A DNA stretch of 64,000 nt from Myxococcales bacterium. Lineage in GTDB: Bacteria; Myxococcota_A; Polyangia; Polyangiales; JAFGIB01. A program made the translations under genes and the position numbers. Below are positions 39,501-42,500 of the stretch, piece by piece. The notes under the pieces were generated by a model that did not search any database, was not told where the DNA came from, and worked only from the letters and a program-made list of their open reading frames with translations. The stretch is from the NCBI GenBank assembly GCA_050118535.1, contig JASFKR010000005.1, forward strand, positions 5,199 to 69,198, read 5' to 3'. Position 1 is the first letter of the stretch; the number at the start of each line of letters is the position of its first letter.

Positions 39501-42500
39501 CCTCCACGAGCGTGCCGCCGCAGATGATCTCGCCGTCCACGCACATGCGCTGGCCCACCTGACAGGCCCCGACCGGCGTGCCGCAGGTGGGGTTGTTCGT
39601 GATGCTCTGATCCTCTTCGTCGGTGTCGCCATCGCAATCGTTGTCGTCACCGTCGCAGACCTCGTCGCTTCCGACGATCTGGCCGTCGCACACCACCGTG
39701 CCGGCGCGGCAGGTCCAGGTGCCGCTTCGGCACACGCCCTCGTCGGTTCCGCAGGTGCCCCCGACCGCGTCGTCGGTGGCTGCGACGCCCTCGTCGATTC
39801 GGCCGTCGCAGTCGTCGTCCACGCGGTTGCACTGCTCCGCGCAGCGCTCGACCCCGTCCGCATCCGGCGCTGTGGCCACGCAGCCTTCATCACCGGGGTT
39901 GACGTTGCAGCGCCGCTCGCAGCCGTTTTCGTCGTTGCCGTCCAGGTTGCGGAAGCCGTCGTCACACTTCGTGTTGTCGAGGATGCAGTTGCCGTTGACG
40001 CACAGGGCACCGTCGGTCGCGTTGCTGAAGAAGCAGCCGAACCCGCAGGACCCGCAGTTGTTCGGGTCGGTGTCCAGGTCGACGTCCTCGTCCACCTCGC
40101 CGTCGCAGTCGTTGTCGATCAGGTCGCAGGCGGTGTCGTCGTCGCTGTTGCCGGTGCAGCGGTACTCGCACCCGTTTTCCTCGTCCCGATCCAGGTCGTA
40201 GAATCCGACGTCACAGCCCTCGGCGCCCAGCTCGCGGTCGATGCGGCACTCGCCCCCCTCGCACTTGGCGAATGCGCGCGACAGCTGGCAGACGTTGCCG
40301 CAGCCGCCGCAGTTGTTGACGTCGGTGTCGTAATCGAGCCCCTGCGCGGCCGGGTCCACGTCCTCGTCGACTTTGCCATCGCAGTCGTCGTCGACGCCGT
40401 TGCAGACCTCGGTCTCGTTGCAGTCCGGCACGCGGCCGTCCGGCAGGGCGCCGTCCGGCAGCGTGCCCATCCCGTCGCCGTCGCCGTCGCCGTCGCCGTC
40501 GCCATCGCCGTCGCCGGGCGTGCTCATGCCGCCGTCGCTGGCGGTGCCGCCCTCGTCAACCCCCATGTCGCCGTCGCCGTCGGAGGGGCCCTGGTCATCC
40601 TCGGGAGGGCAGTCCAGGCAGAAGGGCTCCACCTTGCAGCCGCCCGCCAAGAGGCTGAAGGCGACCAGCAGCGCCAGCATCAGCTCGGTGACGCCCAGCT
40701 TCGACAGCCACCCCAGGCGCCGCCGCCGCCCCAGCACCACCAGGCCCAGGCCGAAGAGGGCCAGCGCCAGGGCGCCGCGGCTGCCGCTTCCGCCGGCCTG
40801 CGGCGCCACGGCGCCCACCGGGACGCTGCAGGTGCACCCGCCACCGCCGGAGGCGATGATCCGGCTCTGGGGGTCGCTGCCGTCGCCGGAGGCGCCATCG
40901 CCGTCACCGTCGCCATCGCCGTCGCCGCCGCCGCGCACGTTGATGCACTCGCCGGCCATGCAGACGAAGCCGGTCTGGCAGACCTCGCCGGCGTCGTCGC
41001 CCTCGCAGCTGCCGCTGGCACCGCAGTACATCTGATCCGACTCCGGGTTGACGCAGGAGCCCTCGCAGTTGACCAGCCCATCGGCGCAGGTGTCGCTGCA
41101 CTCGCCGCGCGAGCAGACCTGGTCGTCGGGGCAGGCGGCGCCGGCGTTGTCGCCCAGGCAGTCGCCCGTCGCGCCGCAGAAGCCCTTGCTCGTCTGCGGG
41201 TTGACGCATTGATCGTCGCAGAACAGCAGGTTGCCGAAGCAACGCGGCTCGCACTCGGCCGTCTCGGAGTTGCACTGCTGGCCCCGCGGGCAGCGGGTCG
41301 ACAGGCACGGGTCCTCCACGCAGGTGCCCTCGACCAGGTCGCAGACCTCGCCGTCGGCGCAGCCCGTGCGCACGCACTCCGGCGCTACGATGCACTCACC
41401 GTCGTCCGGCTTGCACACCCGCCCGGCCTCGCACTGGGTGCCGGCGCAGGGGTCGGGCACGCAGTTGCCGTCCTCGCAGCGGTTGTCCGAGTCGCACTCG
41501 ACCGTCGCGCAGCTCTTGATGCACACGCCGTCGCGGCACGCCTCGTCAGCCGCGCAGTCCTGCGCCGCGCACGGGTCGTCCACACAGCTGAAGGCGCCGT
41601 CGCTGAGCTGGCAGCGCTGGTCGCCCTCGCAGGCGAATTGCGCCAGCAGGCAGCTCGGCTGCTTGCAGCGCCCGTCGGTGCGGTCGCACACGAGCCCGCT
41701 GCCGCAGGTCACGCCGTTGCAGACCGAAGTGCACTCGTTGTTCTTGCAGGTGCAGGAGGCCACGTCGTCACGGCCCGGCGCACAGCGCACCTCGCCCTCG
41801 ACCTCGATGGTCTCCTGGACGCACTCGCTGAGCTTGCACTCCTCGCCGACGCAGTAGCAGCCCTCCTCGCCATCCACCTCGACGTTGACCGCGGCCTTGC
41901 CCTGGGCGCACTGGGCCGAGAACTCCATGCCGATGGTGCACGGCAGGGCGCACTGGCACATGACGCAAGCGCTGGTGCCCGGGCACACCGGATCCTCGGG
42001 CGACTCCTCGTCGATCTCGCCGTCGCAGTCGTTGTCCGAGCAGTCGCAGGTCTCGGGCGACGGGGTGACCTCGCCCTGGCAGATCAGCCTTCCGTCCAGG
42101 CAGGCGAAGCGCCCCTTCTCACACAGCCCCACGTCGGTGCCGCACTCCTCGCCCAGGCCCAGGCCCTCGTCGACCATGCCGTTGCAGTTGTTGTCCAGGC
42201 CGTCGCAGATCTCCTCGGAGGGCCCGATCTCGCCCTGGCAGAAGACCTCGCCCGTGTCGGGATCACAGGCGTTCACGCCCGGAGAACACTCGCCCACGTC
42301 GCTGCCGCAGGCGGTGCCCTGGCCGGTGTTCTCGTCGGTGCGGCCGTCGCAGTCGTTGTCGAGCGCGTCGCAGATCTCTTCGCCGCCCTCCACGTCGTCG
42401 AGGCAGACGGTCATGCCGTCCACACAGGTGATGGAGCCGAACTCGCACTCGCCCACGTCGGTGCCGCACTGGGCGCCCACGCTGGGGTCGGTGGCGGCGA

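Follow-up and report, generated by a model that had tools for sequence, protein, structure and literature searches.

A giant myxobacterial ORF with an internal MYXO-CTERM-type tag and lipoprotein signal: probably an old fusion between neighbouring genes, with a product that is cut back into two membrane-anchored proteins

The window considered here is a 64,000-nucleotide stretch of the genome of a Myxococcales bacterium (assembly GCA_050118535.1, contig JASFKR010000005.1, positions 5,199 to 69,198). It contains a giant open reading frame (ORF) of 3,149 codons plus stop on the minus strand (36520-45969), in the middle of which a MYXO-CTERM-type sorting signal is directly followed by a signal of the lipoprotein type. 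The ATG at codon 3 (45961-45963) is the likely true start. The GC content at third codon positions (GC3) is 0.93 in the frame of the ORF and remains at 0.90-0.96 on both sides of the junction between the two signals, so that a hidden frameshift at this site was ruled out. The long plus-strand ORFs lying over the same DNA lack a coding-type pattern of GC content by codon position, and just one short stretch of that strand (44378-44902) passes the codon-position GC filter.

The protein is predicted to start with a Sec signal peptide, and its homologues start with the same kind of N-terminus. Its two halves, separated by the junction module, are described in Table 1. Pfam vWA (PF00092) was recorded for homologues only, and the N-terminus of the window protein is therefore called vWA-like. 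The MopE-related family PF11617 is matched at 101.5 bits in the N-half and at 79.3 bits in the C-half (Pfam). Core motifs of the CDGxDNDCDGxxDE type number 15 in the N-half, in agreement with the initial annotation of this sequence, and 12 in the C-half, where 13 had been given. That annotation also found the halves to fit two tandem paralogous genes, a view that was not supported: they are alike through the MopE repeats alone (26-31% identity), and their end domains differ, with a vWA-like N-terminus in one and FGE-sulfatase and C-type lectin domains in the other. No OmpA domain was found in the C-half by the Pfam scan.

Table 1. Features of the giant ORF and of its junction module, in window coordinates (a slash marks a predicted cleavage point)
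Feature	Codons	Window position	Strand	Basis or remarks
Type-I (Sec) signal peptide, N-terminal, MLRKSLVLGSVVAAVSLLTVVSAASA/QA		45880..45969	-	Translation; no Cys inside
N-half ectodomain		40861..45879	-	vWA-like start (DTSGSM), ~15 MopE repeats, Cys-rich stalk, GD-rich tether
GD-rich tether before the module	1680-1693	40891-40932	-	
MYXO-CTERM-type signature motif, IIASGGGGCTCSVP	1704-1717	40819-40860	-	Cys at 1712, 1714 (GGGGCTCS)
Helix 1, GALALALFGLGLVVLG, 16 residues	1732-1747	40729-40776	-	Hydropathy; read as stop-transfer segment
RRRR	1748-1751	40717-40728	-	
Cytoplasmic loop (predicted), RRRRLGWLSKLGVTE		40684..40728	-	Net charge +4
W1754 (TGG)	1754	40708-40710	-	
Helix 2, h-region of the internal lipoprotein signal, LMLALLVAFSLLAGG		40639..40683	-	15 uncharged residues
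Lipobox LAGG/C		40636..40650	-	Predicted Lgt/LspA site before C1778; Cys codon 40636-40638
Predicted mature N-terminus of the C-half, CKVEPFCLDC		40609..40638	-	Conserved
C-half		36523..40638	-	GD tether, ~12 MopE repeats, FGE-sulfatase-like domain, C-type lectin
GD tether after the module	1819-1836	40462-40515	-	
FGE-sulfatase-like domain in the C-half		36976-37410	-	Pfam
C-type lectin in the C-half		36532-36870	-	Pfam

Codons 1704-1787, which make up the junction module, read IIASGGGGCTCSVP-VGAVAPQAGGSGSR-GALALALFGLGLVVLG-RRRR-LGWLSKLGVTE-LMLALLVAFSLLAGG-C-KVEPFCLDC. The end-type MYXO-CTERM pattern and the lipoprotein signal were thus confirmed in mid-ORF where they had first been noticed, with the Arg cluster, the TGG codon and C1778 as described. 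The loop RRRRLGWLSKLGVTE provides the first signal with its Arg tail and the second with its n-region. As 1,398 residues follow the Arg cluster, the tag is not at the C-terminus. With the alignment as input, AlphaFold2 models helices spanning residues 1731-1750 and 1760-1775 that are linked by a short helix and turns, at predicted local distance difference test (pLDDT) values of 76-88 for the block. An independent internal start for the C-half was considered and rejected: the sole in-frame ATG (M1764) precedes the Cys by 14 residues, which leaves too little room for a signal peptide, and no Shine-Dalgarno sequence is obvious before M1764 or GTG-1744/1745.

With respect to the first signal, the window protein has the signature motif with its Cys residues, the helix, the Arg cluster and an N-terminal signal peptide. 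Unlike a canonical tag, that of the window protein does not stand at the extreme C-terminus; that position is found in four orthologous loci (L022, L023, L030 and L031, see below) and in the homologues P0105 and P0107, where the first motif forms a true C-terminal tag. A check with the MYXO-CTERM hidden Markov model (HMM) of NCBIfam, TIGR03901 (cutoff 20 bits), had been suggested, and it left the window copy below the cutoff. An NCBIfam scan gave no MYXO-CTERM match on either half or on a 74-aa junction segment that keeps the trailing LGW, and the segment cut after RRRR scored 14.5 bits (E 0.034, model positions 1-33 of 34). As controls, the experimentally studied tail of TraA scored 20.6 bits and the true C-terminal tails of P0105 and P0107 19.9 and 24.4 bits, respectively. 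Six internal modules of homologues gave 26.0, 31.9 and 32.9 bits for three of them and 15.2-17.6 bits for the other three. The match of the window copy is weakened by its 14-residue spacer between motif and helix, and a low score is not diagnostic, because the tail of P0105 also falls below the cutoff. Judging from these sequence features, we read the first element as a MYXO-CTERM homologue in an internal position and not as a canonical MYXO-CTERM.

The second signal has a LAGG/C lipobox, an RRRR...K n-region and a 15-residue uncharged h-region. A bare PROSITE-type lipobox pattern was dropped as evidence, as it matches 983 of the 30,925 Cys residues of 121 homologues, which are Gly/Ser/Ala-rich proteins. 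Since that pattern is unspecific, a combined signal peptidase II (SPII)-like test was used, which asks for a small residue at -1, an uncharged hydrophobic 12-mer and a net-positive n-region. It selects C1778 alone among the 280 Cys residues of the giant ORF, in keeping with the lipoprotein-like character first ascribed to this part. Over the 30,925 Cys of the homologues it selects 81, among which 74 carry a conserved C-x-V-x-P-F-C motif, six a diverged motif after the helix/Arg context, and one lies elsewhere; the module is far beyond chance. The signal, which in a lipoprotein precursor stands at the N-terminus, is internal in the window and N-terminal in eight orthologous loci. In L020-L023, L026, L028, L030 and L031, the same h-region, lipobox and mature start form N-terminal lipoprotein signals, with C-x-V-[DN]-P-[FY]-C-L-[DT]-C as the mature start. 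The stretch of uncharged residues that leads up to the lipobox Cys measures 16 residues at the family median, compared with 13-17 in these eight signals. Homology to them is the strongest argument for the identity of the second signal as a putative lipoprotein signal.

The residue at +2 after the lipobox Cys is Lys in the window; over the 98 full modules described below, it is Asp in 45 and Lys in 23. Asp at +2 is tied to inner-membrane lipoproteins in E. coli, and MYXO-CTERM proteins depend on type II secretion. In M. xanthus, Lys at +2 marks inner-membrane lipoproteins (PMC3222651). The +2 residues that the C-half shares with inner-membrane lipoproteins weakly suggest that it may avoid the Lol pathway; to regard it as a type II secretion substrate would be an analogy only.

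The module is found well beyond the window. At an E value of 1e-10 or below, 1,007 relatives were retrieved in a protein search, and among the best 120 of them, which were analysed (28-53% identity, 1,700-5,300 aa), 102 have an internal Arg/Lys cluster between two hydrophobic segments. Stricter extraction left 98 modules with the full pattern. One internal module is carried by Sandaracinus amylolyticus WP_236604012.1 (2,205 aa), encoded on a 10.75-Mb contig; it occupies about residues 1225-1310, with GGGGCIC as its first motif and CDVEPYC at the predicted start of the C-half. In an alignment of 65 modules (A1), the lipobox Gly-Cys (G80, C81) and the Cys residues at C+7 (C87) and C+10 (C90) are invariant, and G13, G14, C15 and C17 of the first motif (G-G-C-x-C), as well as Val at +3, are kept in at least 90%. 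Over the 98 modules, Cys +1 is present in all, Gly -1 in 97, and position -2 is G, S, A or T; the net charge of the loop is at least +2 in every case, with a median of +7. The helices and the loop retain just hydrophobicity and positive charge across the family. A profile search of a representative library of 1.84 billion sequences with a 106-position module profile gave 64 matches, mostly fragments, with the long proteins missing, and is unusable for estimating family size; whole modules accounted for 24 of these matches, and first parts standing at the extreme C-terminus and second parts standing at the extreme N-terminus for 15 each. A protein search with the module alignment gave a single match, probably because low-complexity words swamped the candidates.

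At the DNA level, a scan of 185,579 genomes, one per species, with the pattern CxV[DEN][PT][FY]C[LI][DTN]C yielded 31 confirmed loci, in genomes titled as Myxococcota-type metagenome-assembled genomes (Polyangiales, Sandaracinaceae, Haliangiales) or bearing generic names. The ORF runs uninterrupted through the module in 21 of them. Two loci (L014 and L027) have several frameshifts inside the module, at about nucleotides 2900-3250; the isolate name of L027 has an 'LR' (long-read) label, and the shifts in both may represent indel errors in G/C-rich runs or real gene decay. In four loci (L022, L023, L030, L031), there are two genes in different reading frames that overlap by ATGA (…cgATGA…). The upstream gene of each pair ends with GGGGCxC, a helix and RRRR, then 2-10 residues and TGA; the ATG of the downstream gene overlaps that TGA and opens a product of the form M-(K/R-rich)-hydrophobic-[AGST]C-xV[DN]P[FY]CL[DT]C. 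In the other four loci (L020, L021, L026, L028), only the C-half is present, encoded by a lipoprotein gene that follows an unrelated ORF of non-MopE type. The split upstream ORFs have their best match in the N-half of the window protein, and the downstream ORFs match its C-half from residues 1747-1755 on. C-half identity between split or stand-alone loci and fused loci is 50-63%; as this lies within the range found among fused loci (41-67%), the fused, split and stand-alone states have interchanged more than once.

These loci bear on the first of two explanations that the initial annotation had offered, namely that tandem genes were joined, in this genome alone, by an assembly error or by the recent loss of a stop codon (TGA or TAG changed to TGG); relatives would then be expected to show a stop at that codon and two genes. 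TGG is indeed one substitution away from a stop, and separate-gene versions do exist, in four of the 31 genomes. Against this, the codon is TGG (Trp) also in the closest relatives, L001 and L005, whose whole junctions align with that of the window residue by residue; the ORF is fused in 21 genomes and in about 100 proteins; and GC3 is steady across the site. Furthermore, since the split genes are out of frame with each other and overlap by ATGA, a point mutation at the stop could not fuse them, and fusion would need an indel or another change of frame. A recent event of this kind is thus highly improbable, and what stands of the proposal is a two-gene fusion in the evolutionary sense.

The locus is probably an old fusion of two neighbouring genes, the product of which is cut back into two membrane-anchored proteins. 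In its full form, which we hold to be the best account with somewhat better than even confidence, the ORF would be a conserved ancient fusion of two adjacent envelope-protein genes encoding a self-resolving polyprotein with two lipid-anchored products. The N-terminal Sec signal would export the N-half until helix 1 halts transfer, the Arg-rich loop would remain in the cytoplasm, and helix 2 would re-insert with its N-terminus in and its C-terminus out, restarting export, of the C-half this time; the two helices most likely form a positive-inside hairpin. Lgt would then lipidate C1778, and LspA would cut between G1777 and C1778, freeing the C-half as a lipoprotein that begins with CKVEPFCLDC. 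The N-half would be left ending in a MYXO-CTERM-type tag, which the myxosortase MrtX may cleave at GGGGCTC after modification of the Cys. Cleavage by MrtX after Cys modification has an experimental precedent in TraA, and the cleavage of MYXO-CTERM by MrtX depends on the Cys and takes place in E. coli as well (PMC11980579). The hairpin of about 60 residues would be discarded, and the outcome would be two lipid-anchored proteins at a 1:1 ratio, the same products as those of the ATGA-overlapping gene pair in other Myxococcota.

This polyprotein model agrees with the second explanation of the initial annotation, a positive-inside hairpin possibly cleaved by a sortase-like enzyme or signal peptidase II, which fits the comparative data and is preferred here. 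In its favour, the residues relevant to processing, that is, the lipobox Gly-Cys and the Cys residues of GGGGCxC, are alone selectively conserved. Several points weigh against it. Cleavage, lipidation and topology in this family are all inferred, the score of the first motif in the window is under the TIGR03901 cutoff, and the literature searches turned up no case in which Lgt or LspA acts on a signal peptide that is tethered at its N-terminus to a preceding helix. Conservation of Cys +1 could be partly structural, given its place within a C-x5-C-x2-C motif. Lastly, the 20 neighbouring ORFs that were scanned, which did not include those at about 11-26 kb, contain no mrtX, lgt, lspA or type II secretion gene, an absence that says little in a 64-kb window.

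Two other fates of the protein can be set beside cleavage at both signals. The hairpin might never be processed, leaving a one-piece inner-membrane protein with two periplasmic ectodomains, in which the Cys motifs are structural remnants of the ancestral signals. The conserved fused ORF, the two adjacent helices of the AlphaFold2 model with their pLDDT values and the invariably net-positive loop would all suit such an anchor, which also dispenses with the inferred cleavage. It does not readily account for the retention of Gly -1, Cys +1 and the GGGGCxC Cys residues while the rest of the hairpin diverges, for a helix 2 that has the length of a signal peptide and falls short of a full transmembrane length, or for orthologues that switch between the fused state and a split state in which the pieces are necessarily separate; we consider it rather unlikely. 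Slightly less probable still is that one signal only is used, so that either LspA frees the C-half, with the N-half staying in the inner membrane by a two-helix tail, or MrtX frees the N-half, with the C-half keeping an uncleaved hairpin anchor. Partial processing of this sort would be in line with the sub-threshold MYXO-CTERM motif of the window and its long spacer before the helix, and MrtX has been tested solely on true C-terminal tags (PMC11980579); yet the residues of both signals are equally conserved over the family, and the true C-terminal tail of P0105 is also just below the cutoff. Both the uncleaved hairpin and the use of one signal fit less well than the polyprotein model because the processing residues alone are conserved and because orthologues move between fused and split states.

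In addition, VLATGGGGCxC before helix 1 and GC-x-V-D-P-F-C-L-D-C after helix 2, both of them Cys motifs close to the membrane, might co-evolve as a pair presented next to each other on the outer face of the inner membrane. They might then share lipidation and/or export, for example through one acyltransferase and through type II secretion as a pre-assembled complex. We regard this as a speculative and doubtful extension. In two mini-proteins, P0153 (97 aa) and P0156 (95 aa), from loci L032/L033, a lipoprotein signal leads into C[TE]VDTYCPKC, and a short linker joins this to V[VI]ATGGGG..C, after which the protein ends with a helix and an Arg-rich tail; they have both membrane-proximal motifs of the giant proteins but lack the ectodomains. 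The contigs with P0153 are under 1.5 kb. These mini-proteins hint at a link between the two Cys motifs, and such a pairing, if true, would help towards identifying the enzyme by which the MYXO-CTERM Cys is modified.

Among known systems, MXAN_5598 of M. xanthus has an internal MYXO-CTERM that was called rare and atypical; a two-gene fusion was suggested for it, its N-part was proposed to be processed and anchored at the surface, and evidence was cited that sorting tags work in mid-protein (PMC11980579). The window protein resembles it in having a MYXO-CTERM-type tag in mid-ORF, an adhesin-like N-part and a second exported part after the tag. The two differ in that the second part of MXAN_5598 is an outer-membrane beta-barrel/OmpA protein, whereas the C-half of the window protein has MopE repeats and FGE-sulfatase-like and C-type lectin domains. 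They differ further in the lipoprotein type of the second signal, with its Gly-Cys lipobox, in the family of about 100 or more members, and in the split and stand-alone orthologues. Four other proteins, P0031, P0040, P0076 and P0087, are adhesins of the MopE/TSP3 type in which a type-I-like signal (…AKA/QK, …ANA/QT) comes after an internal helix-RR-helix module; P0076 and P0087 carry OmpA-family domains, P0040 is annotated as a transporter, and their architecture is like that published for MXAN_5598.

The TraA/TraB pair of M. xanthus offers a likeness to the split loci L022, L023, L030 and L031, as the MYXO-CTERM gene overlaps the start of its exported partner. The protein families are other ones, however, TraB is not a lipoprotein with a C-x-V-D-P-F-C-L-D-C start, and in the window the genes are fused. 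In archaea, a Tat substrate of Haloferax volcanii reportedly has a tripartite sorting structure that is not C-terminal and undergoes ArtA-dependent processing, to go by the title of a 2017 paper by Abdul Halim and colleagues. The likeness lies in a C-terminal-type tripartite signal off the C-terminus; the difference is that the system is archaeal and uses an archaeosortase. In the envelope polyproteins of bunyaviruses, flaviviruses and pestiviruses, an internal signal for the next ectodomain comes after the membrane anchor of the preceding one, and the products are separated by host signal peptidase. Their topological logic is the same as that of the window protein, but they operate in the eukaryotic endoplasmic reticulum with cleavage of the signal peptidase I type, and their sequences are unrelated; the signals of the window protein are, unlike the viral ones, a bacterial sortase-type tag and a signal peptidase II lipobox.

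Full-text literature searches returned no internal lipobox, internal lipoprotein signal, bacterial lipoprotein polyprotein or description of the architecture of this family. An internal MYXO-CTERM is already known as a rarity, with one named example. What appears to be new is that such a tag is paired with a signal peptidase II signal, that the family is so large and deep, and that fused, split and stand-alone genes form a natural series which documents the equivalence of the forms. Comparable junctions were seen in unrelated proteins. P0163 (3,293 aa, of an unrelated family) has two near-identical halves joined at residues ~1846-1925 by SGCDCSV-helix-RRRR and the lipoprotein-type KKKGALLAVLVLGLVLGVVSC; its second half ends in another tag at the true C-terminus, and it is a genuine tandem-paralogue fusion. 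P0142 (551 aa) has two tandem paralogous units, with an internal GGGGCACD-helix-RRRRR at residues ~246-330 and a second tag at the C-terminus; after the internal tag comes a recognisable copy of its own N-terminal type-I signal peptide (SSFDSARAIGRVVAV... vs SSYRFSARAIGAVVV...). Fusions of a tag to the signal peptide of the next gene recur in at least four unrelated myxobacterial families, and such junctions may be functionally neutral because the cell cuts them.

If the proposed processing is true, the protein would be a natural bacterial envelope polyprotein in which two lipid-anchoring pathways act at opposite ends of a discarded hairpin and the ratio of the products is fixed at 1:1. The model makes two activities testable, that of Lgt and LspA on an internal, helix-tethered signal peptide and that of a myxosortase on a tag away from the C-terminus. 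As for annotation, giant Polyangia proteins (2,000-5,000 aa) named "MopE-related" or "vWA domain-containing" may each represent two mature proteins, and internal sorting tags may escape HMM rules that look for such tags only at the C-terminus.

The neighbours of the giant ORF are housekeeping genes, namely LarC-type (Ni_insertion), AIR carboxylase- and AIR synthase-domain, metallophosphoesterase and NamZ genes, and no functional link was found from the neighbouring genes. A MoxR-type AAA+ ATPase gene followed by one for a DUF58/vWA protein (60638-62804, plus strand) forms a MoxR-vWA pair unrelated to the giant ORF. MXAN_5598 is reported to lie within a cell-division/cell-wall gene cluster (PMC11980579). 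In the window, a penicillin-binding protein with transpeptidase, PBP-dimer and PASTA domains is encoded at ~26272-28755 on the minus strand, about 8 kb from the giant ORF. Directly upstream of the latter, and on the same strand, lies a 1,648-aa ORF (46198-51144, minus strand) with a Ser/Thr kinase-like N-terminus and a C-terminal region that, as read from its translation, is AAA+ activator-like with sigma-54-activator motifs. The 228-bp spacer between the two ORFs (45970-46197) contains TGGCGC-N5-TTCAT at 46151-46166 on the minus strand, an imperfect match to the sigma-54 -24/-12 consensus.

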